Origin: a virus | IMG/VR virus record: IMGVR_UViG_3300038299_000184 | Coordinates: 1 to 64,000 of that record | DNA length: 64,000 nucleotides | Direction: 5' to 3' (one strand) | Shown here: positions 173-16,919 of the stretch, piece after piece | How positions within the stretch are numbered: position 1 is the first letter of the stretch | Layout: each line of letters opens with the position of its first letter | Notes under the pieces: generated by a model | The model's database searches: none | What the model was told of the DNA's origin: nothing | What the model saw: the letters and a program-made list of their open reading frames with translations, nothing else | Position numbers and translations under genes: made by a program

Positions 173-175
173 TAT

Positions 176-3332: not shown

Positions 3333-3363
3333 ACCACCCTGTGGTTTGTGTATCATTGCCCCA

Positions 3364-4200
3364 ATGAGTACATTCAATAAGAAGACAGGTTATAAGATGG
3401 CAACCCGAGAGGTAGGCTATCGTGGGACTAAGTTCTCGCCATACTGCTTCCAAAGACAACTCCGTGATAAAAAGGATGATGGTGTCACCGACACACTAGA
3501 GGAGATGAAAAACTGTGTAGTGAAGCAGATTACATTTAAAGAAGCTCAGAACTTCATCCTAGAATTCGAATGGTTAGGTACTATGGGTACCACAAAATTC
3601 AGCTACGGTGTCTTCACCAATGATAGACTGACCGCTGTGTATTGTTTCGGACTAACCGCTGGCACCGCTGCACTATCCCAAGTATTTGGCGAAGAGAATA
3701 AGAAACGGGGTCTAGTATTAGTACGTGGTGCTTGCGCTCCATGGGCATACAGAAACATGTCTAGCTTTGGTATGGGCAAGGTTTTACCAGCACTACATAA
3801 GGAACGTGACATCGATTATCTAATCGCATACTCCGACCCAGAGGCTGGTGAGATAGGTACAGTATACCAAGCAACCAATTGGAACTTCTATGGTATGACA
3901 GCCCCTGTGAACTATCTAGTTCGCCCAGACGGTAAGCGGTCAGACCCAAAACTGATTTCAAAGTATGCCAAGAAGAAAAACATTACATACGCAGAACAGA
4001 AGCAATTGTTCGTAGACGAAGGTTATACCTTCGAGAGGGGTTCTCCAAAACTTAAATACTTCAAGATCATTGGTAACAAAACCATTCGAAAAGAACTCAC
4101 CAAACAGTTGAAAGTTCCTGTATATAAGTACCTTAAACGTATGGACAACATGGAAGACTTATATGGTGTGTTCAAGGCGCAGATTAAAAATTCAAAATAG
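3364..4200 (+). CDS. Mom-like (GNAT-fold) DNA modification protein
   Basis: LIAYSDPEAGEIGTVYQATNW resembles the Mu Mom-family signature. Confidence 0.65.
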   Translation: MSTFNKKTGYKMATREVGYRGTKFSPYCFQRQLRDKKDDGVTDTLEEMKNCVVKQITFKEAQNFILEFEWLGTMGTTKFSYGVFTNDRLTAVYCFGLTAGTAALSQVFGEENKKRGLVLVRGACAPWAYRNMSSFGMGKVLPALHKERDIDYLIAYSDPEAGEIGTVYQATNWNFYGMTAPVNYLVRPDGKRSDPKLISKYAKKKNITYAEQKQLFVDEGYTFERGSPKLKYFKIIGNKTIRKELTKQLKVPVYKYLKRMDNMEDLYGVFKAQIKNSK

Positions 4201-4206
4201 ATTTGA

Positions 4207-4242
4207 AACTGGTTGGATCAATTAGGTCTTTATTAAGTTGAC
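4207..4242 (+). repeat. 36-bp direct repeat, copy 2
   Basis: AACTGGTTGGATCAATTAGGTCTTTATTAAGTTGAC. Confidence 0.9.
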
Positions 4243-4272
4243 CTAATACCATAAAAATGCATAAATGCACAT

Positions 4273-4641
4273 ATGAACAAATTCGATAAACTAGTACAAC
4301 AAATATTAAACGAGAACACTGACAATGGACTCACCCAGCAACAGCACAAGGCGGTGTCCAAGACTGGGGAACTTTTAGGTCTTGAGTTTGATGATGTACA
4401 GCTCGTCGATAATGGCGAAACTGGTTATGTCCTACACTTATTTAAAGACGGTGAAAAATCTGCGCGGTTTGAGTACGACAAGGTAGATAATGAATGGTTT
4501 GTAAGTCAAGCTGGTGGTAGTGAGTTAAAGGTTGGTAAGATATCCTTTAACGGTGAACTGATCGAGGGCACACGTTACATACCCAACCCAAGATCTGGTA
4601 GGAAGCCTGTAGTGGAAATCAAACCACCCCAGAGGTCTTAA
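4273..4641 (+). CDS. hypothetical protein, possible internal head protein
   Basis: N-terminus MNKFDKLVQQILNE resembles a T4-type capsid targeting leader. Confidence 0.6.
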   Translation: MNKFDKLVQQILNENTDNGLTQQQHKAVSKTGELLGLEFDDVQLVDNGETGYVLHLFKDGEKSARFEYDKVDNEWFVSQAGGSELKVGKISFNGELIEGTRYIPNPRSGRKPVVEIKPPQRS

Positions 4642-4677
4642 TATACAAATCTACACCTACTTAGTATAATTAATATT

Positions 4678-5286
4678 ATGAGTAAATTTGGTTATATAAT
4701 AGAGAAAATCAACAGTATGGTGTCAACAGATTCCCGAATCGATGACATAATGGCTTTAGATGGGCAGGATAGGTTGGACTTACTAGGTAAAACCGAATTT
4801 GCTATTATTACATCCGACAGGGCAGATGGTCACAATGCAGCCATTGGGCAGGAAATTAAGGTAGCTAGAGATGGAGGGTCTAAGGAAGAGATGGAGGCTG
4901 TATTGGCTAGAAACAAGGTCGAGGTAGATGAAGGTAATGCTGCTATGAGGCCAAGTCTTGAAGACCGATTAAAATCCAGTGGGTTCAGTTATATGAAGGT
5001 AGTGGGTAAATTCCCCGAAGATATTACTGGTGTTAGTACGACTGAGGTATCATTTCTAGTATTACTAGACGAAGATAATATACAAGGTGGTATTGATACA
5101 TTAAATAAAATTGCACAAGGTTATAAGCAAGACTCTATTTTAGTGGGTAGTGGTACACAGACACCACGCTACAGTTTTGTTTCAGAAACCAAAATTGACC
5201 CTCTGGGTAGTACATTAGTGCCAGCAACATCTAGTGATGCTTACTCCACAATGTTCAAAGATGGGCAGTACTTCACAGTGTCTTAA
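4678..5286 (+). CDS. hypothetical phage protein
   Basis: 202-aa ORF, TAATTA-N5-ATG start. Confidence 0.75.
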   Translation: MSKFGYIIEKINSMVSTDSRIDDIMALDGQDRLDLLGKTEFAIITSDRADGHNAAIGQEIKVARDGGSKEEMEAVLARNKVEVDEGNAAMRPSLEDRLKSSGFSYMKVVGKFPEDITGVSTTEVSFLVLLDEDNIQGGIDTLNKIAQGYKQDSILVGSGTQTPRYSFVSETKIDPLGSTLVPATSSDAYSTMFKDGQYFTVS

Positions 5287-5341
5287 AAAAATATATCACA
5301 AAAAGCTTTGACACATTGCCACTATTTTGTATGGTCACCAC

Positions 5342-5923
5342 ATGACACAAACACTATACACCACGGACGACCTAAAAGCAGTAGTAGCAACTCTTAATAA
5401 GAAGGGTGCTGCATATAAGGAACAACCTAAGATCCGACTAATCAAAAGAATTCTAAAATCTTGGGGTAGGAGTATCGGACATAGTTTAAAGTTGGTTAAT
5501 GGTACCGCTAATACAATTTCTGGTAAGGTACAGGTTGAGCTAACCATCAACGGGGAATGCAACCGAAGCGATCTAGCATCCATCACCCTTGAGTGGGTTA
5601 AACGAATTCGCGGCTTCAGATTGGATAACCACCCACCAAAGGTTAATACTCGTCATGCTGCGATTACAGCCCAGAGACAGGCCGATCAATTATTTAACGA
5701 GGAGAAATCTAAGTTCGTTACCGTTGTGTTGGAAGCACTAGGTGGTAGTAATGCCACGACAATTGCAGTAGTAGAGTCCATTAAATTTGGACTAGATACT
5801 AATACGACTCTTGCAATCATCGTTGCAAAAAATCGACATAATCAATTGAGGTTACAATTGAAAACTACTCTTGAAGGTTTGAAGCAGGATTGGCATTCGG
5901 ATAATAAATTAAACAATAACTAA
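5342..5923 (+). CDS. hypothetical protein
   Basis: ORF after TTGACA...TATGGT; flanked by the AAAATATATCACAAAAAGCTT repeat. Confidence 0.7.
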   Translation: MTQTLYTTDDLKAVVATLNKKGAAYKEQPKIRLIKRILKSWGRSIGHSLKLVNGTANTISGKVQVELTINGECNRSDLASITLEWVKRIRGFRLDNHPPKVNTRHAAITAQRQADQLFNEEKSKFVTVVLEALGGSNATTIAVVESIKFGLDTNTTLAIIVAKNRHNQLRLQLKTTLEGLKQDWHSDNKLNNN

Positions 5924-5940
5924 AATATATCACAAAAAGC

Positions 5941-5968
5941 TTGCAAACTGGCATTAGGTTTGTATAAT
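5941..5968 (+). promoter_or_regulatory. sigma70-type promoter of tRNA operon 1
   Basis: TTGCAA-N16-TATAAT with A-rich UP element; near-identical to 14065-14092. Confidence 0.8.
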
Positions 5969-5991
5969 TAAAAACATCAGACAATAACACT

Positions 5992-6084
5992 ATGAACTCC
6001 TTTATCAACATTTCACATTCATCTTTCTCAATCTCGGATTGGGCGGTATGTGTGAGTGCGGATACTAAGAGGTCGTGGTTTTAA
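5992..6084 (+). CDS. attenuator leader peptide 1 (MNSFINISHSSFSISDWAVCVSADTKRSWF)
   Basis: 30 codons read directly; 8 Ser, 2 Trp, 1 Cys; lies between promoter and terminator upstream of tRNA-Trp/Ser/Ser/Cys. Confidence 0.8.
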   Translation: MNSFINISHSSFSISDWAVCVSADTKRSWF

Positions 6085-6117
6085 AATTTGAATAACAGAT
6101 AATTAAAATAAGCTACG

Positions 6118-6148
6118 ACCCAATTGGATAACTCCAGTTGGGTTTTTT
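6118..6148 (+). terminator. attenuator terminator 1
   Basis: ACCCAATTGGA-TAAC-TCCAGTTGGGT plus T run; competes with the 6071-6080/6111-6120 helix. Confidence 0.85.
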
Positions 6149-6244
6149 GTTTATAGGGTTTTTGAGGAGGTTACACCCGAAGTAATCGAACGTCCATAAT
6201 GATGGCTTACCTTTAGGGTAAAAGAGAAACACAAACAAACAAAC

Positions 6245-6318
6245 AGGAGTATCGTATAAAGGTTATTACAGTGGTTTCCAAAACCATTTATCTAGATTCA
6301 AGTTCTAGTGCTCCTGCC
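6245..6318 (+). tRNA. tRNA-Trp(CCA)
   Basis: AGGAGTA/TGCTCCT acceptor, GTGGT-TT-CCA-AA-ACCAT. Confidence 0.88.
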
Positions 6319-6323
6319 TTATT

Positions 6324-6408
6324 GGAAGATTCCGTCTACGGTGACAAAGTGGTTTTGAACGCCATGGGTACTGAAAGGTACGGGGTTCGAGTCCTCAATT
6401 TTCCGCCA
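6324..6408 (+). tRNA. tRNA-Ser(TGA)
   Basis: GTGGT-TT-TGA-AC-GCCAT, long variable arm, G73, CCA. Confidence 0.9.
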
Positions 6409-6414
6409 TTTAAC

Positions 6415-6501
6415 GGGGTGTTGGCTGAGTGGTTTAAGGTACCGCATTGGAAATGCGGCAGGGTCTAAACGCCCTCACTGGTTCAAATCCAGTACACCCT
6501 T
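6415..6501 (+). tRNA. tRNA-Ser(GGA)
   Basis: CCGCA-TT-GGA-AA-TGCGG, long variable arm, GTTCAAATCC. Confidence 0.9.
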
Positions 6502-6509
6502 CATAACAA

Positions 6510-6582
6510 GATGCCGTGGTAGAGCGGTAATACATGGGTTTGCAAAACCCTCAACACTGGTTCGAGTCCAGTCGGCATCTCC
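6510..6582 (+). tRNA. tRNA-Cys(GCA)
   Basis: GATGCCG/CGGCATC acceptor, U73, loop TT-GCA-AA. Confidence 0.9.
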
Positions 6583-6852
6583 TTATTCAACCACAATAGT
6601 CAGATCACCTTGATCATGAGAGATTGTCTTAACGGCAACCCCTTCAATGATAACTTGTGGTAATAGAAGATCTGGAATATCTTCTGTGTTGTTGTTAGAT
6701 CTAGTCTTAGCAACTTCCAATTCCTTTTCGGTGAACAGTAGACTAACTACTTCACCGTTTTCATAAACATGAACATGAACGTATTCTGCTGTAGCCGAGT
6801 TATATCTTTTGGTATTCTCAACACGCAGTAGACTCCCTAGTTTAGATTTCAT
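6583..6852 (-). CDS. hypothetical protein antisense within the tRNA cluster
   Basis: 89-aa ORF with TAATTA-N5-ATG on the minus strand. Confidence 0.7.
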   Translation of the reverse strand: MKSKLGSLLRVENTKRYNSATAEYVHVHVYENGEVVSLLFTEKELEVAKTRSNNNTEDIPDLLLPQVIIEGVAVKTISHDQGDLTIVVE

Positions 6853-6874
6853 GTTATTAATTAGTCAATTAAAT

Positions 6875-6951
6875 GCAAGATTAGCTCAGTCGGTAGAGCT
6901 GGGGGTTTACATCCCCTGTAAGCATAGGTTCAAGCCCTATATCTTGTACCA
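6875..6951 (+). tRNA. tRNA-Val(TAC)
   Basis: GCAAGAT/ATCTTGT, GGGGG-TT-TAC-AT-CCCCT, CCA. Confidence 0.9.
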
Positions 6952-7024
6952 TAGTTCGCTACCAGTGGTAGATGGATGTATAAAGGGCTTCCCGTTGTCC
7001 CAGCATAGCAAAACAACGGTATAT

Positions 7025-7108
7025 GGGGTGCATGGCAACATGGGTGTTGCATTTCCTTTGCAAGGAAGCATTCAAGTTAAAAGAGTTCGATTCTCTTGTG
7101 CTCCACCA
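7025..7108 (+). tRNA. tRNA-Ala(TGC), enlarged variable region
   Basis: G3:U70 acceptor pair, loop TT-TGC-AA, CCA. Confidence 0.85.
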
Positions 7109-7274
7109 TATGATAGAAGAAAATGAAGTAGAAGAAATAGAAATGTTCCCAGAGCACCAGTTCCCCGATTTTAGGGAGGCTGATTATGATCAGTGGGCTG
7201 CGGAATTTAAACACCACCTTGAAGATTTATTAGAATAGTTATTTACAATATCTGCATTTTTGTTATACACATTC

Positions 7275-7559
7275 ATGGTAAGAATTTTTACGACAATCAC
7301 TAATGACTCATTACAGGTAACAGTAACAGACTCATTGAAGAATACTGAAGAGATCCACACTATCAAAGATGTTGAATCTTATAGGAATTTTATCAAGGTA
7401 ATCGAGAGCGGTAAAGTTCCTTGGTTTGATAGGAATACACGAATTTCTAATTCGTCATCAATTAACTGGGCATCTAGTGAAACAGATAACCAGTTCGTGA
7501 TTGATATTGTCGATTATATTTTCCACGATGGAGAACGACCAAAAACTTTAAAGGGTTAG
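7275..7559 (+). CDS. hypothetical protein
   Basis: ORF track. Confidence 0.6.
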   Translation: MVRIFTTITNDSLQVTVTDSLKNTEEIHTIKDVESYRNFIKVIESGKVPWFDRNTRISNSSSINWASSETDNQFVIDIVDYIFHDGERPKTLKG

Positions 7560-7575
7560 CAACATAATTAGTTAT

Positions 7576-8193
7576 ATGTCTTTTAAGGATTTTTATAGTG
7601 AGTTTGTAATCGAGAGTTACGAAGGTGAGCAAACCTCCGTACACCCAGTCATCAAGGTTGGTGTGGGTCATGAAGATTATATGAAGTGGGCATTTAAGAT
7701 CGATAATAGGTTCGAAGATAATGCAGCCACTATCCATATGAAGAATGTTAGTATGGTACTGAACCATAATGCTATTGATAAAACTATCAGAAACACTGAT
7801 ATGAGTAAAACAAGAGCTGGTTCCAAACAACCCATCATCCTTCTTAAAGGTGAAATTGTTGCAGTAGATTTTGATGAGTCGGAGTTGCGTTTAAAACTCC
7901 AAGAGAGTTCATGGGAACCTGTTACATATAACCCCCACAAGAACCCCGAAGTGGTTTTGTCTAATACATTACCTAGCTGGTGGTGTACAGAGCCTAGGCT
8001 GGGTGATAATAGAGGTAAACCCGATTTCATCAAGAATCGCCTAGATGCTATGGTTGAGTATGGTGAACACCCCGATCAACCAACACAAGTCACACATAAA
8101 GATGGAAGTGGTAGATCAATATTCACAGCTAGGGAGGTACTACTAAAGCAGCACAGAGTGTGTAATGAAGATTATATGTGGATGTTGAAATAA
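7576..8193 (+). CDS. hypothetical protein, possible internal head protein
   Basis: MSFKDFYSEFVIES leader resembles the T4 CTS; TAATTA-N5-ATG. Confidence 0.65.
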   Translation: MSFKDFYSEFVIESYEGEQTSVHPVIKVGVGHEDYMKWAFKIDNRFEDNAATIHMKNVSMVLNHNAIDKTIRNTDMSKTRAGSKQPIILLKGEIVAVDFDESELRLKLQESSWEPVTYNPHKNPEVVLSNTLPSWWCTEPRLGDNRGKPDFIKNRLDAMVEYGEHPDQPTQVTHKDGSGRSIFTAREVLLKQHRVCNEDYMWMLK

Positions 8194-8231
8194 GATGTTG
8201 ACACACCACGGTGGTGATGTATAACCACCAC

Positions 8232-8498
8232 ATGAGAGCAATCATTTACGACAACCAAGTTTATAAGTCCGAACAATCTGGCACTGTAGTACTAGCCAAG
8301 GATAGACTATATGAGAGTGGTACGTTTGGTGCCATCGCCCTAAGTGGGGATGATGAGGGTAAATATCTTGAGGGTTGGTTCAGTGGTGATTTCACACCTA
8401 TTACTGACACCGACGAGGAAAGTCATTATGTAGAATGGGCACGGGAAAACAATTTCAGTGAGTACTCAACTCGTGACCCTAAACTCGGAAACAAATAA
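8232..8498 (+). CDS. hypothetical protein
   Basis: ATG 6 nt after TTGACA-N16-TATAAC. Confidence 0.65.
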   Translation: MRAIIYDNQVYKSEQSGTVVLAKDRLYESGTFGAIALSGDDEGKYLEGWFSGDFTPITDTDEESHYVEWARENNFSEYSTRDPKLGNK

Positions 8499-8514
8499 AC
8501 AAACACAACTTGTT

Positions 8515-9081
8515 ATGAAGAACGCAAAACCAAAAGATCCTTATAAAGTCGTTGAAGCTGCTTTGGATTATATCAGTCTCAATCTTTTAGAACCAACGCT
8601 ATTGAGAAACGTAAGATTAGATCCGAATAGTTTACGTAAACACGCTAAGATTCGTTTCGAAGGATTGCCGTTCCGAGATTATGACGATTTGACATTTCCT
8701 CATGGCGTAGAGGAGTGGTTGGATTATGTGTTCGGGGATGGCATGACTTATTCGGCTTTTTTAGCTGGGGAAGCTGCTAAAAAATCCATTATGGCTAGTG
8801 TTAAGCTACCAAGATGGACGGATATTTACAGACGGATGAAAGTGGAGAAACAGCAAGCTATCTACAACAAACTATCTTTCGGGGAAAGGTTTAAAGTCTC
8901 ATTCTCTCCTAGCAAGATCGAAATTCGTGAGGTAGTTTCAAAAGACGATAGGTCAAAATACATGCTTTGGGGAGCGAAGGAACGAAGGTATCTCGATAAG
9001 CATAACGACCATATAGACAAGTACTGGATCGACGAAGATGGAAATTACAAATACGATTTCGAATGCATACCTTATCTATAA
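8515..9081 (+). CDS. hypothetical protein
   Basis: ORF track, internal ATG. Confidence 0.7.
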   Translation: MKNAKPKDPYKVVEAALDYISLNLLEPTLLRNVRLDPNSLRKHAKIRFEGLPFRDYDDLTFPHGVEEWLDYVFGDGMTYSAFLAGEAAKKSIMASVKLPRWTDIYRRMKVEKQQAIYNKLSFGERFKVSFSPSKIEIREVVSKDDRSKYMLWGAKERRYLDKHNDHIDKYWIDEDGNYKYDFECIPYL

Positions 9082-9130
9082 ACATAAGGAAGCTGCTGAC
9101 GAAGCAGGGTAAACATATTAAATAATTTAC

Positions 9131-9205
9131 GGGACGTTCGTATAACGGCTATTACACGGGATTGTCTATCCTGCTATGAGGTTTCGATTACCTCACGTCT
9201 CGCCA
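9131..9205 (+). tRNA. tRNA-Asp(GTC)
   Basis: CGGGA-TT-GTC-TA-TCCTG, G73, CCA. Confidence 0.9.
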
Positions 9206-9206
9206 T

Positions 9207-9293
9207 TTTAAGTATTGTGGAAACACAGAGTATCGGTTGTACCGACTGAACATAGTAATGACTCTAGCACTAGACAGGTGTTACTTAAAACCC
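9207..9293 (+). ncRNA. tRNA-shaped RNA with expanded anticodon arm
   Basis: TTTAAGT/ACTTAAA stem, TGTG-GAAA-CACA arm, GAGT/ACTC enclosing TCGGT-TGT-ACCGA, 5-bp/7-nt arm AGCAC-TAGACAG-GTGTT. Confidence 0.5.
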
Positions 9294-9296
9294 TAT

Positions 9297-9371
9297 CGGA
9301 GGGTAGCTGAGACGGATTAGCATAGGTCTGAAAAACCTAAGAGGTGGGATCGTTACCCACACCTCCGACCA
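9297..9371 (+). tRNA. tRNA-Phe(GAA)
   Basis: TAGGT-CT-GAA-AA-ACCTA, CCA. Confidence 0.88.
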
Positions 9372-9415
9372 TTTAATAATTGACACCACTGGTTATTTAT
9401 TATACCACTAGGTAT

Positions 9416-9781
9416 ATGAGCAACCACGAAAGAGTCACAGACCTCACAGCTAGGTCTAAAGTAAAGCGAGGTACTACAGTTGATCTGATCAGCTCTAGGA
9501 GACGCAAGCCAGCCACTGATCTAATCGGTGCTAATAAAACACAAGACCGTAAAGATTCTTGTAAGAAACATTTCATGATGAGATACCGAGAACGGTATGG
9601 ATTCATTTGTAAGCATTTCATGTATTCAGAAATTTTGAAACTTGTTAGATCATCTAAACCATATGAACATTGCGTGAAGATGAATCGACACAAGTATGAG
9701 ATCGACCATAGTGGAACGACACTAAATATAGTTTATGATGATAGGTTGAACGTGCTGGTCACACTATTACCACCAAGGTAG
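9416..9781 (+). CDS. hypothetical basic protein
   Basis: ORF track; C-terminal VYD...LVTLLP. Confidence 0.6.
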   Translation: MSNHERVTDLTARSKVKRGTTVDLISSRRRKPATDLIGANKTQDRKDSCKKHFMMRYRERYGFICKHFMYSEILKLVRSSKPYEHCVKMNRHKYEIDHSGTTLNIVYDDRLNVLVTLLPPR

Positions 9782-9796
9782 TAGAGATACTAAAAT

Positions 9797-9873
9797 GGTG
9801 TAGGTAGCATAATTGGCAATGCCCTCGGTTGTGATCCGAGAAAATGCGGGATCATACCCCGTCCTATACCCCA
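9797..9873 (+). tRNA. tRNA-His(GTG) with encoded G-1:C73
   Basis: CTCGG-TT-GTG-AT-CCGAG; G precedes GTGTAGG and C73 precedes CCA. Confidence 0.9.
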
Positions 9874-9876
9874 TAT

Positions 9877-9951
9877 TGTTGTGTAGCTCAGAGGAAGAGC
9901 GCAGCTTTGATAAAGCTGAGGTCGGGATTTCAAAATTCCCCACAACAACCA
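9877..9951 (+). tRNA. tRNA-Ile(GAT)
   Basis: CAGCT-TT-GAT-AA-AGCTG, CCA. Confidence 0.9.
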
Positions 9952-9989
9952 TTTATTGACACCAATGGTATTCATTACTAAGTATACCC

Positions 9990-10235
9990 ATGTCAACACG
10001 AGCAGATAGAATATCTGACCACTACTCTATAGTATTCAAATATGGGTCAAAGTTTAAGACCATTATAACACCAGAGTCTGGTTGTGGGATATGCCCAAGC
10101 GAGGCATGGGTGTTTGGTGGGCCTATGACCAAGTGTGATAAAGAAATTAGTATGTCCTGTGAGCCTGTTATACAGTCACTAGATATACCAGTACACAGAA
10201 TAAAATCAACGGAAGATTTACTAGACAGGGTCTAG
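9990..10235 (+). CDS. hypothetical protein
   Basis: 81-aa ORF, TAAGTA-N5-ATG; 3' end overlaps tRNA-Ser. Confidence 0.5.
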   Translation: MSTRADRISDHYSIVFKYGSKFKTIITPESGCGICPSEAWVFGGPMTKCDKEISMSCEPVIQSLDIPVHRIKSTEDLLDRV

Positions 10236-10298
10236 GCTGGATTGCTAATCCAAGTACACCACTAGTGGTGTGGGGATCGTGCCCTCAATCTTCTGCCA
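10211..10298 (+). tRNA. tRNA-Ser(GCT)
   Basis: GGAAGAT/ATCTTCT, loop TT-GCT-AA, long variable arm, G73, CCA. Confidence 0.88.
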
Positions 10299-10343
10299 TA
10301 TTGTATGTGTTTCTCTTACACCATTCTATAATTATATAGAACT

Positions 10344-11090
10344 GTGACTATGGAAATAACATTTTTAACAACGTCAACAATTTCAGATATTCAAGTAACA
10401 CAATCTAGGTGCATTAAAAAATTCTTCCCAGATAGTGAACATGTGATTATTGATGGTAATAAGAGCTTCCCAAAGGTTTGGTACGAATGGCTGGATGTAG
10501 TAAAGGACAGCGAGTCGGATTGGTTTATACACATCGATGAAGATTGTTTCATAACATCCCCAGATGAAATATTAAAGCTGATCGAGGAGATGAAATCTGG
10601 TGGTTATGACATCGCAGGTTCGCCAGATGGTTATAATGAATTTTACCGACATGGTAATCACATGGCTATTAATTCATTTTTTATGGTATTGAATAAATCA
10701 GTAATTGATACATGGCACAATCGAACAGGTAATTGTCCTCAGTTTAAAAAGGATTGGATTGAAGAATATCCGTTTGAAAGGCACGGTGATTCGCATTTTA
10801 TATATAATGTTAAATTATTAGATGGGTACCATACATGGGTACCATATTCAGAACCATACTACGGATTTCTATGGGTGTTGAAGCAGAAGGGTTTGAAATT
10901 TAAATATATAGAACCTGTGTTCAATCCAACCTTCAGTACCACAGATCTGTTAAATGGTACAGTTAAACATATGTGGTTCCAACGCCAACGGAAGAGTGTT
11001 AAAGTAGTATCAGCAGCACATACAATATCTAATAAGGATAGATTTGATGGTATGTTATTATATATAAACCACCTTCTACTAAGTAATTAA
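10344..11090 (+). CDS. GT-A fold glycosyltransferase-like protein
   Basis: DWFIHIDEDCF DxD motif. Confidence 0.6.
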   Translation: MTMEITFLTTSTISDIQVTQSRCIKKFFPDSEHVIIDGNKSFPKVWYEWLDVVKDSESDWFIHIDEDCFITSPDEILKLIEEMKSGGYDIAGSPDGYNEFYRHGNHMAINSFFMVLNKSVIDTWHNRTGNCPQFKKDWIEEYPFERHGDSHFIYNVKLLDGYHTWVPYSEPYYGFLWVLKQKGLKFKYIEPVFNPTFSTTDLLNGTVKHMWFQRQRKSVKVVSAAHTISNKDRFDGMLLYINHLLLSN

Positions 11091-11094
11091 ATGT

Positions 11095-11241
11095 ATGAGT
11101 GAAGAAAAGAAAACACCATTCAAGCGAGGAGAAGTTAGGCGACGACAAGATGCCATCAAGTTTGAACCACCACTATACCCTAGACCTTCCAAGGACTGGG
11201 ACTTAAAGAAAGGTCAAAGAAAACTTGACTCTGGTAACTAG
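11095..11241 (+). CDS. small basic hypothetical protein (48 aa)
   Basis: TAATTA-N5-ATG; reads MSEEKKTPFKRGEVRRRQ... Confidence 0.45.
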   Translation: MSEEKKTPFKRGEVRRRQDAIKFEPPLYPRPSKDWDLKKGQRKLDSGN

Positions 11242-11272
11242 TGGTGTATTATGAATACATAATTAAATTTAT

Positions 11273-11616
11273 GGGGCTGATTTGGTTTCGACTTTAATCA
11301 ATAATTACCCAGTATCAACCAAGGTGGTTCCAAGACCTGCTGATAAGATCAACCAAAATGACGAAAATACAGTCGCTCTAGCTGCCTAGGCAGTGAGCCA
11401 CACAGGACTTCTATCAACCCTGTATGGCTAAGAGTAATAAGATAGTGCATTCGGTGTAAGACATCGACAGCTACCCATACAGGCTGTTAAATACAGGATG
11501 GTGAGTCAGATATCATACACTGACTAGTGTGAACAACGAAATGGTTCAAAAATGGTTGTAGACGTACTGAGATACGATGATTAAAACAAGCAGTTCAACT
11601 CTGCACAGCTCCACCA
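11273..11616 (+). ncRNA. ssrA: tmRNA
   Basis: 5' GGGGCTGA...TTCGAC; 3' T arm plus CAGCTCCACCA; tag frame ...NDENTVALAA-TAG ending at 11389; promoter TTGACT-N16-TATTAT. Confidence 0.95.
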
Positions 11617-11653
11617 TAATAGCCCACCTTGTAATGAGGTGGGCTATTATTTA
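11616..11653 (+). terminator. hairpin/terminator after tmRNA
   Basis: ATAATAGCCCACCT...AGGTGGGCTATTAT. Confidence 0.75.
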
Positions 11654-11698
11654 ATACAAGGATGCCCTAATTAGTAGTATAACCCCAACTATACTACT

Positions 11699-11944
11699 AT
11701 GAAAACACTACTAGGAAGATTTAAAAACTGGAAGACCACACTACTTGGTGCCCTTGCCGCTGCACTCATTGCTGCTGGTGGTTCACTATCAGAGGGTCAA
11801 GTAGATTACAAGATCATACTTGCTGCCGCTGGTGCTGCCGCGATTGGCTCTGTACTCAAAGACCCTGCTAAGAAAGTAAAACCTGTTAAGGGTATCGCTA
11901 AAGCCATTGTGGTTGATGAGGAAACTGGGGAGGATGTTGGGTAA
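11699..11944 (+). CDS. putative holin-like membrane protein
   Basis: Two hydrophobic helices, charged C-terminus. Confidence 0.5.
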   Translation: MKTLLGRFKNWKTTLLGALAAALIAAGGSLSEGQVDYKIILAAAGAAAIGSVLKDPAKKVKPVKGIAKAIVVDEETGEDVG

Positions 11945-12198
11945 TGACCGTATTTGGTGCACTTAAAATATTTGATATAATCAAGTTGGCACTGATGATT
12001 TGGTCTGCCACGAAACTACAAGCCCTACTAAAAAGATCTTATGAAATTGATAACGAAATTGATAATGCTGCCATTGATGCTACTAAGTCTGATATGCTGC
12101 GGATCAAGCGGCTTGCCGACGAAAAAGCAAGAATTGCTAAATACCTCAGCGTTGCTGACTCCGTACTCCGTGAAGTCCCTAAAGGGAAAGGAGTATAA
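11944..12198 (+). CDS. putative i-spanin-like protein
   Basis: N-terminal hydrophobic segment plus helical charged domain; overlapped by a lipoprotein ORF. Confidence 0.45.
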   Translation: MTVFGALKIFDIIKLALMIWSATKLQALLKRSYEIDNEIDNAAIDATKSDMLRIKRLADEKARIAKYLSVADSVLREVPKGKGV

Positions 12199-12298
12199 GT
12201 TTGAACAAGGTGTCTGGATAGGCACTGGTGAATCACTATACTCACAGGCTGCACTATCTGATGCGGTTTCCTCTGGCAGGGTACGCAACGGTAAATAA
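12041..12298 (+). CDS. putative o-spanin-like lipoprotein
   Basis: Signal peptide with lipobox-like LSLICC; overlaps the previous ORF in another frame. Confidence 0.45.
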   Translation: MKLITKLIMLPLMLLSLICCGSSGLPTKKQELLNTSALLTPYSVKSLKGKEYKFEQGVWIGTGESLYSQAALSDAVSSGRVRNGK

Positions 12299-12305
12299 TT
12301 TAATC

Positions 12306-12335
12306 AAGGGCTGTACTTAATTGTACAGCCTTTTT
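12306..12335 (+). terminator. intrinsic terminator
   Basis: GGCTGTAC-TTAATT-GTACAGCC-TTTTT. Confidence 0.8.
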
Positions 12336-12384
12336 ATTTGAAAACAATAGTTGACCTAAATGTTATATCGTGTATGGTCAACCC

Positions 12385-12624
12385 ATGTCAGAGAACATTC
12401 ACTATCGAGGTTATAATATCCAAACCATCACAGAGACCCTTGGGCTTAAAGGCCGAACCATCACACCATACAAATCCTTCGTCGTGAAGGGTGCCAAGGT
12501 TGTAGGCTCAGAGAGTTTCGCACCATTGTACAGAACCACTCGGGGTGGCTACCCTAAGTCGGCAGCACTCCGTGACATCAAGAACGATATCGACTGGTAT
12601 CAGAAACAGGGGTGGATCGCTTAA
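12385..12624 (+). CDS. hypothetical protein
   Basis: ATG 6 nt after TTGACC...TATGGT. Confidence 0.65.
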   Translation: MSENIHYRGYNIQTITETLGLKGRTITPYKSFVVKGAKVVGSESFAPLYRTTRGGYPKSAALRDIKNDIDWYQKQGWIA

Positions 12625-12858
12625 TATGGATTTATTCTGGAAATCATGGGTGGTTATTGTTGCCCTTTGGGTGGGGTTGTTCCTATTCTCAGACTGTGAC
12701 CCACCACACAAAATTGGGTCACAGACTGAAATGTTGCATGATGCAAGGGGTAAGACTGTAAAGGAATGTAGTGTTGACGGTTTGATTTTCACAATCAAAT
12801 TCACTGATGATACATCACTTAACTCAAGAATGGACAAACACTCACCAAAGGTATACTA

Positions 12859-13089
12859 ATGAAAGAATTTGAAGTATGGTCTGCGGGTTACCTTGCCACA
12901 GGTATGGAAGGTAGACCTATGAAGGCAAGGTGTGAAGGTACATGGGAGGGTAAAGACTTCCCAGAGGCTTGCCAGAACTGGGCAAACTCTTTGAAGCAAC
13001 CAGAGCTTTACACCCCCGAGACTAACCGTTATTGGGGTATTCATTTATTTGATAATGAGGTTGATGCCCGTAAACAATTTGGATATTAA
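12859..13089 (+). CDS. hypothetical protein
   Basis: 76-aa ORF. Confidence 0.6.
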   Translation: MKEFEVWSAGYLATGMEGRPMKARCEGTWEGKDFPEACQNWANSLKQPELYTPETNRYWGIHLFDNEVDARKQFGY

Positions 13090-13140
13090 ATAAAACTTAC
13101 AGAAAGGTGTTGACCTAATTCAGATTTATGGTAGTATTTA

Positions 13141-13368
13141 TACATCGGAAGGAACAAAGGGTTTGGCGACCAAGAGTGACTGAAGATAAATCGGGTTTCG
13201 TTGATATCGCCATTGATACGAATCAGTATGTTAGTACAAGTCCAATCAGAAAAGGTCGCAGGTTCGAATCCTGTCTAATCATCCACAGTGGTGTTTAGTA
13301 GCTCAGTTGGTAGAGCAGTTTTGTATAAAGACTAGGAGGGTGCAATTCCTTCCATACATTCCGATGTA
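13141..13368 (+). ncRNA. ncRNA containing a circularly permuted tRNA domain (YrlA/Y-RNA-like architecture)
   Basis: Closing stem TACATCGGAA/TTCCGATGTA; T arm (13258-13274) precedes D arm (13301-13316); own promoter TTGACC-N16-TAGTAT. Confidence 0.75.
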
Positions 13369-13382
13369 AAATAAATAGGATG

Positions 13383-13470
13383 GATTGATATGACAGACAA
13401 CTTGACGGGGTCGCGACCCCTCGGGAGAGGGGATATCAATTTAGACTAGTGGTGTATATCGTCAGTCTGA
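13383..13470 (+). ncRNA. putative structured RNA
   Basis: GATTGATAT/ATATCAATT stem with GGGGTCGCGACCCC and CCCCTC-GGGA-GAGGGG; TAGACT/AGTCTG hairpin. Confidence 0.4.
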
Positions 13471-13496
13471 AAAAATACTGAACTATCCACTACGAA

Positions 13497-13581
13497 GAAC
13501 ATAACAGTGGCTGGGTATAGCATTCCACAATGTGCTAGGGGTGCCCCCTAGAGATAACCAACTCAGTCACTGTTGTGGTTC
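13497..13581 (+). ncRNA. putative structured RNA (long closing helix)
   Basis: ATAACAGTGGCTGGGT/ACTCAGTCACTGTTGT 16-bp helix with G:U pairs; inner hairpins. Confidence 0.5.
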
Positions 13582-13646
13582 AAAACAAATTTTCCACATA
13601 ATTCAAATAAAACTTGAATACACTAAGTGGTGTGTATAAGTATAAT

Positions 13647-13724
13647 TGCGGGGTGGACAAGTCAGGTTAAGTCACTGGTCTCATAAGTCAGTCATCGAAT
13701 GTTCGAATCATTCTCCCGCAACCA
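13647..13724 (+). tRNA. tRNA-Met(CAT) (initiator versus elongator uncertain)
   Basis: TGCGGGG acceptor is fMet-like, but the anticodon stem CTGGT/GTCAG lacks three G:C pairs; CCA. Confidence 0.85.
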
Positions 13725-13730
13725 TATAAT

Positions 13731-14042
13731 ATGAACCTAAACGAACAAATCAAAGCCGACTACGAACAGTTGAAAACAACTAAACGTACTTGGCGGTTGG
13801 ATGAGACCAATTGTAAAGTGACAACCATACTCAATAGTATGGAAACCCACGAGCAAGATGCAGAGTTTGAGGTAGATGCTATGACAGGGGCAATGCTAGA
13901 ATGTAGTATGCACTTTAAAGGAACTCTTGACGAAGTGGTTCGAGATAAATCAATCCTAATTGGGTCATTAGTAGCTGGAACTAAGAAGGCACTAGTATTT
14001 GCCACAGACGATAGCACCACAAACGTGGTCAAAATAAAATAA
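13731..14042 (+). CDS. hypothetical protein
   Basis: 103-aa ORF. Confidence 0.65.
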   Translation: MNLNEQIKADYEQLKTTKRTWRLDETNCKVTTILNSMETHEQDAEFEVDAMTGAMLECSMHFKGTLDEVVRDKSILIGSLVAGTKKALVFATDDSTTNVVKIK

Positions 14043-14064
14043 TTCAAAATATATCAAATAAAAC

Positions 14065-14092
14065 TTGCAAACTGTAATAGGTTTACTATAAT
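14065..14092 (+). promoter_or_regulatory. sigma70-type promoter of tRNA operon 2
   Basis: TTGCAA-N16-TATAAT, homologous to 5941-5968. Confidence 0.8.
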
Positions 14093-14102
14093 TAAAAGCG
14101 TA

Positions 14103-14177
14103 ATGAAGAACAACACACAACAACAGTATCAACCTCAACCGTATCCTATGGACTCGGGTGGTTCTATTGTTGTCTAG
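14103..14177 (+). CDS. attenuator leader peptide 2 (MKNNTQQQYQPQPYPMDSGGSIVV)
   Basis: Codons 6-15 are exclusively Gln/Tyr/Pro; precedes a terminator and tRNA-Tyr/Pro/Gln. Confidence 0.85.
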   Translation: MKNNTQQQYQPQPYPMDSGGSIVV

Positions 14178-14204
14178 TAAGTTACATTACAGAAACAAAT
14201 GTTC

Positions 14205-14237
14205 AACCCGAATCCTTAATTGGTTTCGGGTTTTTTT
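14205..14237 (+). terminator. attenuator terminator 2
   Basis: AACCCGAATCC-TTAATT-GGTTTCGGGTT plus T run; 5' arm also complementary to GGACTCGGGT (14150-14159). Confidence 0.87.
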
Positions 14238-14264
14238 GTGTCCAGTAAAGGTCAAAACAAATAT

Positions 14265-14349
14265 GGGTGTGTTGGGCAATTGGTTGCCTAGCGGATTGTA
14301 ACTCCGTGGGCGAAAGTCGTTGTAGGTTCGAGTCCTACCATACCCACCA
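14265..14349 (+). tRNA. tRNA-Tyr(GTA)
   Basis: GCGGA-TT-GTA-AC-TCCGT, long variable arm, CCA. Confidence 0.92.
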
Positions 14350-14352
14350 TAT

Positions 14353-14426
14353 CGATACATAGCTCAACGGTAGAGTACCACCTAATGGGGGTGGAGATTG
14401 CGGTTCAATTCCGTGTGTATCGACCA
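14353..14426 (+). tRNA. tRNA with aberrant anticodon loop (Pro-like body)
   Basis: Intact cloverleaf with C1:G72, A73 and CCA; loop TAATGGG lacks U33. Confidence 0.65.
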
Positions 14427-14465
14427 TATCAAAAATCAAGCTGTAGAGATAAGCAGCAAATATAT

Positions 14466-14543
14466 CAGAGTGTTGGGTAATTGGCTACCCGCCTAGTTTG
14501 GATCTAGGAGATAATGCAGGTTCGAATCCTGTCACTCTGACCA
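14466..14543 (+). tRNA. tRNA-Pro(TGG)
   Basis: CAGAGTG/CACTCTG, CCTAG-TT-TGG-AT-CTAGG, CCA. Confidence 0.93.
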
Positions 14544-14546
14544 TAT

Positions 14547-14621
14547 AGGGATATAGTGTAATGGTTAGCACCGAAAACTTTGAATTTTCTAGTCTAGGTT
14601 CGAGTCCTAGTGTCCCTTCCA
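14547..14621 (+). tRNA. tRNA-Gln(TTG)
   Basis: GAAAA-CT-TTG-AA-TTTTC, CCA. Confidence 0.92.
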
Positions 14622-14674
14622 TATATATTGTTAAGTTTAACTTGAAAACTTGAACCAATCTACTAATTAAGTAT

Positions 14675-15418
14675 ATGAGTAGAAGAAGGCGTAGTGTTGT
14701 GTGGTTGATGCCAGAGGGTGAGTTTAAAGAACTAGTAGCCAATTCATTCTGTTATAGTGATATTGTTAGGGTGTTCAACTTTGGGAAGGTGGGTGGTAAT
14801 ATAAACACCATTAAGAGTCGGATAGCTGATTTGGGATTGGATATATCACATTTTGGAAATCCAGCGGTCATAGCAAATTCATACAGGGTGTTGAGTGAGA
14901 AGGCAGCTATCGATAAATGGTTTATAAAAACACCACATAAAATATTTTGTAACAGGTCTATTAAATGTTATATTAAAAAATTCAATCTTTTAAAATATGA
15001 GTGTTCAACAAATGGATGTGGTGTTAACACCACATGGTTGGGGTCTGAATTGATTCTGCAACTAGACCACATAGATGGTGATCGAAGTAATAACGTTTTA
15101 GGAAATTTGAGATACTTATGCCCCAACTGCCACTCACAAACTCCAACGTATGCGGGTAGGTCACTCAAAATACGACATGAATGTACTTCTTGTGGTGGTG
15201 TTAAACAAACCAAGAACTCTGAAAATTGTGCCAGTTGTGCTGCTATGATAAACTCTAGAATGAAGTTCGACCCAACATTCGACGAGCTACACCGCCAAGT
15301 ATGTATTGATAAAATTCCCTTCACAACTTTAGGTAAAGAGTATGGTGTATCTGATAATGCAGTGAGGAAACGTTGTATCAAACTAGGTATCGATCCAAAG
15401 ACTCGTTCCACTAATTAA
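14675..15418 (+). CDS. HNH homing endonuclease (paralog of 1651-2364)
   Basis: LQLDHIDGDRSNN...LCPNCHSQTPTY; KFDPT...GVSDNAVRKR HTH. Confidence 0.88.
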   Translation: MSRRRRSVVWLMPEGEFKELVANSFCYSDIVRVFNFGKVGGNINTIKSRIADLGLDISHFGNPAVIANSYRVLSEKAAIDKWFIKTPHKIFCNRSIKCYIKKFNLLKYECSTNGCGVNTTWLGSELILQLDHIDGDRSNNVLGNLRYLCPNCHSQTPTYAGRSLKIRHECTSCGGVKQTKNSENCASCAAMINSRMKFDPTFDELHRQVCIDKIPFTTLGKEYGVSDNAVRKRCIKLGIDPKTRSTN

Positions 15419-15424
15419 CACCAC

Positions 15425-15790
15425 ATGAAAGAATTTTGGAAAACAACTTTGTCAACTATAGCTGGTGTAGTGTTAGCAGCTCTCGTATTAGGTTTCTTTG
15501 GATTGATATATGAGAAGGCTAATAAGTATGATGCGCTCTTGGAGAGAGTAGAAATCGTCGAGGCTGGTCAACAGGAGACTAGAGAGAAGCTTGGTGACAA
15601 GATTGCCAAACTATCCGTAGAGGTCAAGGAGAGGCATGGTGACGAGGATAAGACACCACCTAAGTCAATCCCTTGGAGCATTACACCACCTTCACTATCA
15701 CCATCCCCTAGCCCAGTCCCTCATATAGATAATAATATCGATGCATATATCAAAGAGCAAAATAATATACGCGAGACTTTTAAACGTTAG
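15425..15790 (+). CDS. membrane-anchored coiled-coil, Pro-rich protein
   Basis: N-terminal TM, PSPSPSP segment. Confidence 0.65.
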   Translation: MKEFWKTTLSTIAGVVLAALVLGFFGLIYEKANKYDALLERVEIVEAGQQETREKLGDKIAKLSVEVKERHGDEDKTPPKSIPWSITPPSLSPSPSPVPHIDNNIDAYIKEQNNIRETFKR

Positions 15791-15828
15791 GTGTTGACAT
15801 ATAACACCAGTGGTGTATATTGAAGTTC

Positions 15829-16308
15829 ATGAGTAAATCAAACATTGAACTAAAAGAGGGTCAGAAAATTAGAATTTCTCACTACCGCACCGTTGATTAT
15901 GATACGGGAACCACCAAACTTACCAAAAGTCAACCACTACGGGTAAATAAATACGCTGGTAAATCATTCCGCAAATTTGAATTAGATGTACTTGTTAAAG
16001 CTGGTTATACCATTGGTACCAAGGGTGGAAAGACAGTTGCTACACTAGAAGATGTTGATGGTACAATCATCGCAGCAGGTGTATCAATCTGTTCTAGAGA
16101 AGATACATTCTCTCGCAAGCTTGGTAACAAGATTGCTACAGGGCGACTAGCCCAGATGATTAAAGATATTGATGTGTGGTGGTTCCCAGAGGTCGAGGCT
16201 GATATCGTAGCTGAGGCATATACACGGGTTGAAAGACCACACGAGGCTATTTGCCCACCATCTGTACCAGAACCAGTTTATTCGCCTAAAAAGGTACAAT
16301 ACAGATAA
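15829..16308 (+). CDS. hypothetical protein
   Basis: CS.ED.FSRKLG.KIA.GR segment typical of small phage proteins. Confidence 0.7.
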   Translation: MSKSNIELKEGQKIRISHYRTVDYDTGTTKLTKSQPLRVNKYAGKSFRKFELDVLVKAGYTIGTKGGKTVATLEDVDGTIIAAGVSICSREDTFSRKLGNKIATGRLAQMIKDIDVWWFPEVEADIVAEAYTRVERPHEAICPPSVPEPVYSPKKVQYR

Positions 16309-16508
16309 TGTTAATTGAAATATTGAATATCGCAACATCGGGATTCTGGCAATTTATAGCTGTCATATGTATACTATGTATACCCTTCAAATTTGTAATT
16401 AAGTTATGGGTTGGGTATATGAAGATGCTCACTGTTAAAAACCACGGGTATCCACCAGCGCACTGTGATGCACTAGGTAATGCCCATGATGAAGATGATG
16501 ACGAGTAG
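16308..16508 (+). CDS. small membrane protein
   Basis: Hydrophobic N-terminus; coupled start. Confidence 0.55.
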   Translation: MLIEILNIATSGFWQFIAVICILCIPFKFVIKLWVGYMKMLTVKNHGYPPAHCDALGNAHDEDDDE

Positions 16509-16526
16509 TAAATAGACCCACAAATC

Positions 16527-16556
16527 AAACCCATACGTTTATTCGTATGGGTTTTT
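16527..16556 (+). terminator. intrinsic terminator
   Basis: AAACCCATACG...CGTATGGGTTTTT. Confidence 0.8.
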
Positions 16557-16596
16557 GTTATATTGACACCACTGTAATCCGTTCATAAGTAATCAC

Positions 16597-16881: not shown

Positions 16882-16919
16882 TTTGTTAGCTTTTATATAC
16901 TGTAGGGGTAATTAAGTAT

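Follow-up and report, generated by a model that had tools for sequence, protein, structure and literature searches.

Background

The thrL, trpL, hisL, pheL and ilv leaders of enterobacteria are transcription attenuators that combine a short open reading frame (ORF) rich in regulatory codons, a terminator lying before the regulated genes and an antiterminator which uses the 5' arm of that terminator. Comparable parts, the antiterminator being a predicted one, lie upstream of transfer RNA (tRNA) genes in the viral DNA studied here, the first 64,000 nucleotides (nt) of the IMG/VR record IMGVR_UViG_3300038299_000184 (127,787 bp, CheckV completeness 44%), referred to below as the window. Two units, each comprising a promoter, an upstream ORF (uORF) of 24-30 codons, an intrinsic terminator and a block of tRNA genes, lie at positions 5941-6582 and 14065-14621 on the plus strand. 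With a probability of roughly 0.6, these units are ribosome-mediated (leader-peptide) transcription attenuators gating phage tRNA genes. As judged from the predicted folding, the support for this reading appears strong for the second leader (leader 2) and weaker for the first (leader 1).

The enterobacterial attenuators control biosynthetic enzymes or synthetases, whereas the genes behind the two phage leaders encode tRNAs, so that the regulatory loop would close on decoding capacity itself. The pheM leader of Escherichia coli, which attenuates pheST (phenylalanyl-tRNA synthetase), has a target in the translation apparatus and not in amino-acid synthesis. It differs from the phage leaders in concerning one amino acid and a protein-coding target on a bacterial chromosome, whereas the phage leaders carry codons for several amino acids and precede tRNAs. 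Codons for several amino acids in a single leader are also found in thrL, which senses Thr and Ile. T-box leaders resemble the phage leaders in coupling the status of specific tRNAs to a choice between terminator and antiterminator in the leader RNA. They bind uncharged tRNA without a ribosome and control genes for synthetases, biosynthesis or transport, whereas the codons of the phage leaders lie in a translatable frame.

A preliminary description of this DNA had proposed that codon-matched leader peptides control the two tRNA blocks. In the part of the literature open to full-text searching, no description of leader-peptide or uORF attenuation of tRNA genes was found. An E. coli tRNA-Phe gene with an attenuator-like leader, considered as a possible precedent, was discarded, the region upstream of pheV showing a plain promoter and no leader.

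Methods

Units were searched with a pipeline that looks for a hairpin followed by a T run at most 260 nt upstream of a tRNA, and then for ATG-initiated ORFs of 8-50 codons ending nearby. For the fold scan, the transcript up to the terminator loop was folded with a 29-nt ribosome footprint forced unpaired for each A-site codon, mimicking the order of events. The scan yields P, the probability that the 5' arm of the terminator already pairs upstream, and a switch score that was tested against dinucleotide shuffles.

Relatives were surveyed by an alignment of 18 terminase sequences, which led to 80 IMG/VR loci. Seventy-nine of them (L014-L092) were scanned, and one, the contig L003, was treated separately. 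Tenacibaculum phage Gundel_1 (MT732474.1) was chosen from the list of BLAST matches to the tRNAs. Acinetobacter phage phiAbaA1, Bacillus phage vB_BcoS-136, Cronobacter phage GAP32 and Bacteroides phage DAC19 served as a blind sample of tRNA-rich cultured phages.

Results and discussion

Layout of the two units

The record contains exactly two units with a shared promoter, a uORF of 24-30 codons, an intrinsic terminator and a tRNA block; run over the entire 128 kb, the pipeline returned these two only, with one uORF apiece. Promoter 1 (5941-5968, plus strand, as are all features of the units) is composed of TTGCAA, a 16-nt spacer and TATAAT followed by TAAAA, and a specified motif of 21 bases is common to it and promoter 2 (14065-14092). 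The window has exactly two copies of the full pattern TTGCAAACTG-N12-TATAATTAAAA, one at 5941 and one at 14065, and none of 100 shuffles contains it. Its shorter form, TTGCAAACTG-N12-TATAAT with up to two mismatches allowed, has no third copy anywhere in the 127,787-bp record. Leader ORF 1 (5992-6084; 30 codons and TAA) encodes the peptide MNSFINISHSSFSISDWAVCVSADTKRSWF, and leader ORF 2 (14103-14177; 24 codons and TAG) the peptide MKNNTQQQYQPQPYPMDSGGSIVV. Since the ATG of uORF 2 lies 10 nt past the -10 hexamer, its mRNA is probably leaderless or nearly so.

Terminator 1 (6117-6150) is formed by a 12-pair stem with a 4-nt loop (6117-6144) and a T run. Terminator 2 (14205-14238) has the arms AACCCGAATCC / GGTTTCGGGTT with one mismatch (14205-14232), followed by T7, and lies 25 nt ahead of tRNA-Tyr. 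A sigma-70-type consensus scan listed no promoter-like site in the gaps separating the terminators from the tRNAs (6145-6245 and 14236-14265). Promoters at these places would have spoken against the proposal in its preliminary form, which had otherwise given the two loci, their common layout, the homologous promoters and the uORF lengths (30 and 24 codons) as we find them.

Block 1 (6245-6582) holds tRNA-Trp(cca) at 6245-6318, an atypical Ser(UGA)-like element at 6324-6408, tRNA-Ser(gga) at 6415-6502 and tRNA-Cys(gca) at 6510-6582, and is directly followed by a convergent ORF on the minus strand (6583-6852). The Ser(UGA)-like element, with its UGA anticodon loop, was missed by ARAGORN and by the Rfam tRNA model and gave a weak match to tRNA-Sec (22.4 bits, E 0.047). 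Its minimum-energy fold contains the acceptor stem and lacks the anticodon and T arms, which are read by eye. Block 2 (14265-14621) consists of tRNA-Tyr(gta) at 14265-14349, an atypical 'His(atg)' at 14353-14426, tRNA-Pro(tgg) at 14466-14543 and tRNA-Gln(ttg) at 14547-14621. The 'His(atg)' element was called as such by ARAGORN, scores 50.4 bits with the Rfam tRNA model and is absent from L003. Its cloverleaf has either a 6-pair anticodon stem with a 5-nt loop or, in a 7-nt loop reading, an A at position 33. Thus, of the contents first assigned to the blocks, Trp, one Ser and Cys in block 1 and Tyr, Pro and Gln in block 2 are confirmed, the second Ser is the atypical element with its weak tRNA-Sec match only, and the 'His(atg)' had been overlooked.

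Standard finders miss or under-score three tRNA-like elements in the sequences analysed, namely the Ser(UGA)-like element of the window and two Tyr(GUA)-like elements, at 6164-6257 of L003 and at 7766-7838 of the Gundel_1 locus (L007). In all three the acceptor stem is good and is accompanied by a T arm and an anticodon-like loop, the arms being read by eye.

Codon match between leaders and tRNA blocks

Each leader is enriched in codons for the amino acids of its own block, as had been noted at the outset. uORF 1 has seven Ser UCN codons, one Ser AGT, two Trp and one Cys codon, and no codon for Gln (Q), Tyr (Y) or Pro (P), whereas codons 6-15 of uORF 2 are ten Gln/Tyr/Pro codons in a row. Codons read by the tRNAs of the own block make up 10 of 29 in leader 1 (Trp/Ser(UCN)/Cys) and 10 of 23 in leader 2 (Q/Y/P). 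Among the 920 small ATG ORFs (15-45 codons) of the whole record, 12 equal the Trp/Ser(UCN)/Cys fraction of leader 1 and five the Q/Y/P fraction of leader 2 (23 if His codons are counted), while a run of ten matched codons occurs in one only, leader 2 itself. At the amino-acid level, 21 of 52 residues match the own block and 3 of 52 the other block (Fisher p = 4e-5). Binomial tails against the composition of the phage's own proteome are 2.6e-5 and 4.8e-4 for the two leaders. These tests are fair, since the uORFs were defined by position and not by composition.

A Shine-Dalgarno sequence is found before neither uORF. An SD-like 4-mer precedes 7 of the 136 long ORFs of the record, as compared to 12% of random windows. 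The phage's genes thus generally do without a Shine-Dalgarno sequence, and its lack before the uORFs is uninformative on their translation. These figures point to a host that may not rely on Shine-Dalgarno pairing.

A wider role of leader 1, as sensor for the whole 4-kb tRNA region, was considered and not adopted: 22 of its 29 residues have a same-strand tRNA at 6245-10298 (tail 4e-4), with a convergent gene and several promoter-like sites intervening.

A divergent homologue

Searches with the units themselves gave few relatives. The leader 1 region had no blastn match among GenBank phages, and the leader 2 region matched tRNAs only. In IMG/VR, queries with the exact promoter and with two patterns drawn from leader 2 returned either nothing or the L003 contig alone, and a further metagenome scan with a DNA pattern gave no match. 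The protein encoded beside leader 2 has four close homologues in the protein collection; in IMG/VR it was found in L003 only, and it had no match in the JGI metagenomes. The 79 other terminase loci of the survey contain just four tRNAs.

L003 is a single divergent homologue, and hence offers one comparison. Its terminase is 84% identical to that of the window, and its leader 2 shows about 77% nucleotide identity. The L003 uORF, MKTYTQQYQYQSYLMDAGSAVVV, keeps the ATG and the position of the stop codon, with one in-frame 3-nt deletion and four synonymous changes, and the spacing from promoter to ATG is preserved. All three Pro codons of the window leader are replaced (by Y, S and L) and the Tyr codons rise from two to four, so that Tyr/Gln account for 8 of 22 codons (tail 1.5e-4). 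Downstream of the L003 leader tRNA-Pro is absent; the Tyr(GUA)-like element, which gene finders leave uncalled, combines an acceptor stem of 7 pairs with a T arm and the anticodon loop CUGUAAA, and is followed there by tRNA-Gln. At the syntenic place L003 has neither leader 1 nor the Trp/Ser/Ser/Cys module, which suggests that the modules come and go as units. Conservation of the uORFs, the lack of which had been named as a refutation, is accordingly seen for uORF 2, which is kept in frame, and L003 is without leader 1.

The same layout in cultured phages

Codon-matched leaders are also carried by two cultured phages, two by Gundel_1 and three by Cellulophaga phage phi38:1 (NC_021796.1), and are not annotated as such. 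Where the publications on the two phages mention tRNA, they go no further than counting the genes or discussing those of the host (PMC8776804, PMC5335546). An infection time course by RNA-seq has been published for phi38:1 in two Cellulophaga baltica hosts (PMC5335546).

In Gundel_1, leader A (MKTKLYSYSCFSSWFKNRAG, with the run YSYSCFSSWF) and a terminator precede the Tyr(GUA)-like element (27.8 bits with the Rfam tRNA model), Trp(cca), Phe, Ser(tga), an unassigned tRNA and Ser(gct). Leader B (MKTNNLHIQQNNLPVFLEGFLYM, with the run NNLHIQQNNLP) stands before an inserted HNH gene, which is followed by Pro, Gln, Met, Asn and Leu; the 3' arm of its terminator is repeated within the uORF. Matches amount to 22 of 41 for the own block and 5 of 41 for the other (p = 1.2e-4), where the block A set includes two elements read by eye, without which leader A has 7 of 19. 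The tRNA-Trp(cca) of Gundel_1 is absent from the annotation of the record.

The three units of phi38:1, with leader regions at 35,280-35,420, 36,740-36,915 and 37,985-38,135 of NC_021796.1, share one promoter box. Leader I (MKTIMNIATDIRTKGVKLLGRSRVL) precedes Lys, Ile, Gly, Met, Asp, Thr, Val, Arg and Ile; leader II (MKTNMTYNNFSWYSNCSFSSYNVERLYLS) Tyr, Ser, Ser, Asn and Phe; and leader III (MNVTLLHQEPLEQLRLPSRVPYYGIDELS) Pro, Glu, Gln, His, Leu and Arg. Here the own block is matched by 52 of 80 residues and the other blocks by 31 of 160 (p = 7e-12), or by 39 of 80 and 16 of 160 when the tRNAs are limited to those before the next predicted terminator. As for the annotation of phi38:1, the uORF of leader I overlaps the hypothetical protein gp066 (at 754-861 of locus L096, which is NC_021796.1 34500-39300), and several tRNAs called by ARAGORN at a low threshold are absent from it (Met, Ile(tat), Tyr, Ser(tga), Pro and Glu), the Pro and Glu tRNAs overlapping annotated small coding sequences.

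The leaders of Gundel_1 and phi38:1 thus share with those of the window the layout and the match to the own block. They start with MK(T/N), and the make-up of the blocks is alike, with Trp/Ser/Cys-type and Pro/Gln-type sets. No nucleotide similarity was seen between them and the window leaders. The two phages, a podovirus and a Callevirus of Flavobacteriia, have a promoter box of the Bacteroidota type right before the ATG, whereas the promoters of the window phage are sigma-70-like. Testing the codon/anticodon match against the other blocks, in the manner of the shuffled pairings suggested at the outset, gave an excess of own over cross matches in all three phages. The scan of other phages for a codon-matched uORF and a terminator before tRNAs was positive for Gundel_1, phi38:1 and L003, and negative for the four phages of the blind sample and for a relative with 50% terminase identity, which are discussed below.

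Predicted folding of the leaders

In leader 2, segment 2 (GGACTCGGGT, 14150-14159) can pair at 9 of 10 positions with ACCCGAATCC (14206-14215) in the 5' arm of the terminator, forming the antiterminator, and is otherwise buried in a long hairpin spanning uORF 2. In leader 1, the candidate antiterminator strand GGATTGGG (6036-6043, codons 15-18) can pair with CCCAATT(G) of the terminator 5' arm, and is alternatively held in a local hairpin with CTCAATC. Mutually exclusive helices, which the preliminary description had seen at both loci, are thus clear in leader 2 and partial only in leader 1.

In the fold scan, P of leader 2 was 0.19 with no ribosome, 0.63 with the ribosome at codon 2, about 0.8 at codons 3-12, at most 0.2 at codons 15-24 and 0.80 at the stop codon. 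The L003 leader behaved alike (no ribosome 0.09; codons 2-11 0.78; codons 14-23 about 0.1 or less; stop 0.74). As positive controls we used E. coli trpL (no ribosome 0.06; W10, W11 and R12 0.72-0.83; codons 13-14 0.07; stop 0.07) and thrL (no ribosome 0.45; codons 2-14 0.99-1.00; at most 0.19 from codon 16; stop 0.05). Under one and the same script, trpL, thrL and phage leader 2 hence give the same type of profile, in which the antiterminator is favoured by a ribosome on the regulatory codons. The favourable stall window of leader 2 is largely filled by its Q/Y/P run (codons 6-15). The three-state switch score was reached by 1 of 100 shuffles for leader 2 of the window, and by 0 of 100 for each of L003, trpL and thrL. 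In this model, the comparison with trp/his-style attenuation made at the outset would apply to leader 2, leader 1 being ambiguous. One difference of geometry is that the phage uORF continues through segment 2, whereas the uORF of an enterobacterial attenuator stops before it.

The same scan placed the matched run within an antiterminator-favouring window in four of the five leaders of Gundel_1 and phi38:1, the exception being leader A of Gundel_1. In three of the seven leaders (A of Gundel_1, I and III of phi38:1) the antiterminator forms by default and is lost only with a ribosome at the 3' part of the uORF; leader III regains it near the stop codon. Whatever slows translation in general would act on these three, and they could be taken to indicate that the terminators serve for timing or insulation. 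An antitermination factor of the phage or the host, or a general uncoupling of transcription and translation, would then overcome them, with tRNA expression set by the stage of infection and the uORF merely loading a ribosome. Phages often have terminators in front of delayed genes, and the promoter type common to the two units and found nowhere else in the record suggests co-regulation. Yet a general device needs no block-specific codons, and own and cross matches differ strongly in three phages. No antiterminator protein was identified, in analyses that included no search aimed at one. We regard this explanation as distinctly improbable.

Sensing of tRNA by the leader RNA itself, as in a T-box and without translation, would suit regulated products that are tRNAs and structured leaders with a terminator/antiterminator alternative. 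A cmscan of positions 1-17000 of the window at E ≤ 1 gave tRNAs, the transfer-messenger RNA (tmRNA) and a few weak unrelated matches, with none on 5941-6244 or 14065-14264; at this threshold neither a leader family of Rfam (Trp, Thr, His, Leu, Phe) nor a T-box model matches either leader. One leader would, moreover, need to sense three or four different tRNAs, and the matched codon runs share their reading frame with an ATG and a stop that are conserved. We give direct sensing hardly any credence.

Compared with the enterobacterial attenuators, the phage units stand apart in that their mRNA is probably leaderless and lacks a Shine-Dalgarno sequence, and in having no similarity to them in sequence or to their Rfam models. 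On this sequence evidence, the units appear to work like the thr, trp, his and phe attenuators while lying outside the curated families, and their class of target is new.

Proposed mechanism

We propose that a strong promoter would start a short, probably near-leaderless mRNA, whose uORF of 24-30 codons would be translated by a ribosome as RNA polymerase nears the intrinsic terminator just upstream of the tRNA block. If the ribosome is fast or absent, the strand able to pair with the 5' arm of the terminator would be covered or locked in the uORF hairpin; the terminator would form and no tRNAs would be made. If the ribosome lingers on the early codons, most of which are read by the downstream tRNAs (Gln/Tyr/Pro codons in leader 2 and chiefly Ser codons in leader 1), the strand would pair with the 5' arm, the polymerase would read through and a tRNA precursor would be produced. 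More of the matched tRNAs would then mean faster decoding and would turn the unit off, a negative feedback on decoding capacity for those codons. As pure conjecture, the ribosome might be slowed in nature by a host tRNA pool that does not fit the phage, by the disappearance of host tRNAs, by anticodon or defence nucleases, by tRNA decay or by starvation.

Evidence against attenuation and an alternative gene model

Several observations weigh against this mechanism. In leader 1, the baseline P is 0.53, and the antiterminator GGATTGGG:CCCAATT is favoured only with the ribosome at codons 9-10 (His, Ser) and 23-26, P dropping to about 0.2 once the ribosome reaches the end of the uORF. A stall at S10 beats all shuffles (codons 9-10, 0 of 100), whereas S13 is matched by 30 of 100, and Trp17, Cys20 and Trp29 lie outside the favourable window. 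In leader 2, a ribosome on the stop codon favours the antiterminator again, which is not the case in trpL and thrL, and block 2 includes the atypical 'His(atg)' without any His codon in the leader. Helix 1:2 shows, between the window and L003 (two sequences only), one two-sided change, five one-sided changes and six broken pairs. Leaders are present at only two of the approximately nine tRNA groups of the window.

Nor is the layout present in every tRNA-rich phage. The pipeline found no such unit in phiAbaA1, vB_BcoS-136 or GAP32, nor did inspection by eye in DAC19. The only terminator-tRNA match with small ORFs in these three, before tRNA-Asp in GAP32, was discounted as it lies inside the annotated gene GAP32_443. 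The relative with 50% terminase identity (record G003) has at least 25 tRNA-model matches above cut-off and, over its whole record, no codon-matched leader. Furthermore, the similar make-up of the tRNA blocks in three phages means that the modules may share ancestry and are not fully independent. In the 50% relative we noted a TTGCAA-type promoter, a uORF (MKHIMSNINLGRSLFCKRSNSLRVC) and a terminator 143 nt before tRNA-Met (locus L094, minus strand, about 1123-1453); the codons of this unit do not evidently match, and behind its terminator comes a promoter-like site.

Finally, equilibrium folding with the whole terminator keeps the terminator dominant at nearly every ribosome position. The same holds for trpL and thrL, and equilibrium folding was therefore rejected as a test of switching; any switching would have to be kinetic, as in the classical cases. 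A dominant terminator is also what a stand-alone gene for a small RNA or peptide would have, with its own promoter and terminator, the tRNAs being transcribed by leakage or within longer upstream transcripts and the codon match being a by-product of composition, RNA structure or shared ancestry. The strong structure of the three leaders, which exceeds that of shuffled sequences by a wide margin (z -4.3 to -4.8, around -4.4), speaks for attenuation too, but it would also suit a small gene, since termination would release a stable RNA 140-175 nt long. The signatures of covariation and coding drawn from a single homologue are weak, and action in trans is described in other bacteria for an attenuator RNA, rnTrpL, and a leader peptide, peTrpL (PMC6614838, PMC7298713). 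However, a small gene leaves unexplained the enrichment for the own block, seen also in Gundel_1 and phi38:1, the disappearance of Pro codons where tRNA-Pro is absent, and the position of the matched runs within the stall window that frees the antiterminator; a function in trans would, in addition, not exclude attenuation. We therefore consider a small gene an unlikely explanation. It shares with stage-specific antitermination and direct sensing that it accounts poorly for the codon match to the own block, which leader-peptide attenuation would explain.

The source phage and other features of its tRNA region

Judged from its genes and its matches, the source is a marine, distant T4-like myovirus. 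The window encodes the large terminase, portal and major head protein, a Dda-like helicase and NAMPT, and the head protein and terminase have only about 30% identity to those of T4-like phages in GenBank. Sequencing runs matching the record carry seawater or marine metagenome labels, and no RNA run is among those listed. Contigs from four seawater runs were placed on 5800-14700, and the pieces over the leaders (X3, 5903-6192 and 14101-14402; X4, 14047-14336) are identical to the window, which indicates that the leader sequence is real and supplies no variation.

Every tRNA detected in the record sits within the first 15 kb, where ARAGORN made 16 calls, or 19 at a lower threshold. A tmRNA lies at 11273-11616 on the plus strand (Rfam RF00023, 53.3 bits, above cut-off) and was not called by ARAGORN. 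The region 13141-13368 (plus strand) is tRNA-like: a weak match to YrlA (Y RNA-like) at 13250-13321 scores 33.3 bits, below the cut-off of 69, and ARAGORN at a low threshold calls Ile(tat) at 13291-13362; in seawater assemblies, contigs of many other organisms join there, as is expected of a tRNA-like sequence. The stretch 1165-1509 (plus strand; about 345 nt), which separates the end of a gene from tRNA-Leu, has no ORF of at least 80 amino acids and no Rfam match at E ≤ 1, and may be a structured RNA. Two genes directly adjoin tRNA genes. The first, at 14675-15418 (plus strand), matches HNH endonucleases (PHROG E 2.8e-41; weak Pfam HNH), and the second, at 1618-2364 (plus strand), has an internal ATG at 1651 with the same start context and matched no Pfam family.

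A recurring CCACTAGTGG / ACTAGTGGTGT-like motif was observed between or beside the -35 and -10 elements of several promoter-like sites of the tRNA region, at 8195-8225, 9380-9412, 9955-9990, 10255-10270, 11240-11252, 13440-13455 and 13612-13645. It also occurs in L003 promoters, where as in the window it may act as an operator or belong to a type of promoter specific to the phage.

Conclusions

If our reading is true, these units would be, as far as literature searching shows, the first case of leader-peptide attenuation controlling tRNA genes. We tentatively suggest, as a possibility that goes beyond this reading, that phage tRNA blocks are portable self-regulating modules, each with a switch and a sensor ORF that spells out the amino acids of its tRNAs. 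A phage would then make just those tRNAs whose codons are decoded slowly in its present host. The modules would be gained, lost and edited along with the tRNAs they carry, as for Pro in L003, and would be shared among unrelated marine phages (T4-like myovirus, Gundelvirus, Callevirus). The elements are short and modular and occur in two cultured pairs, Cellulophaga baltica with phi38:1 and Tenacibaculum with Gundel_1, which makes the idea directly testable, and they could serve as codon-specific translation sensors. Current ideas on why phages carry tRNAs, and to what use, include that these compensate for codon usage, replace host tRNAs that decay or allow an escape from anticodon nucleases. 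Under leader-peptide attenuation, phages would measure the decoding speed of particular codons and respond block by block, which would give a simple readout of the tRNAs that limit a given infection.

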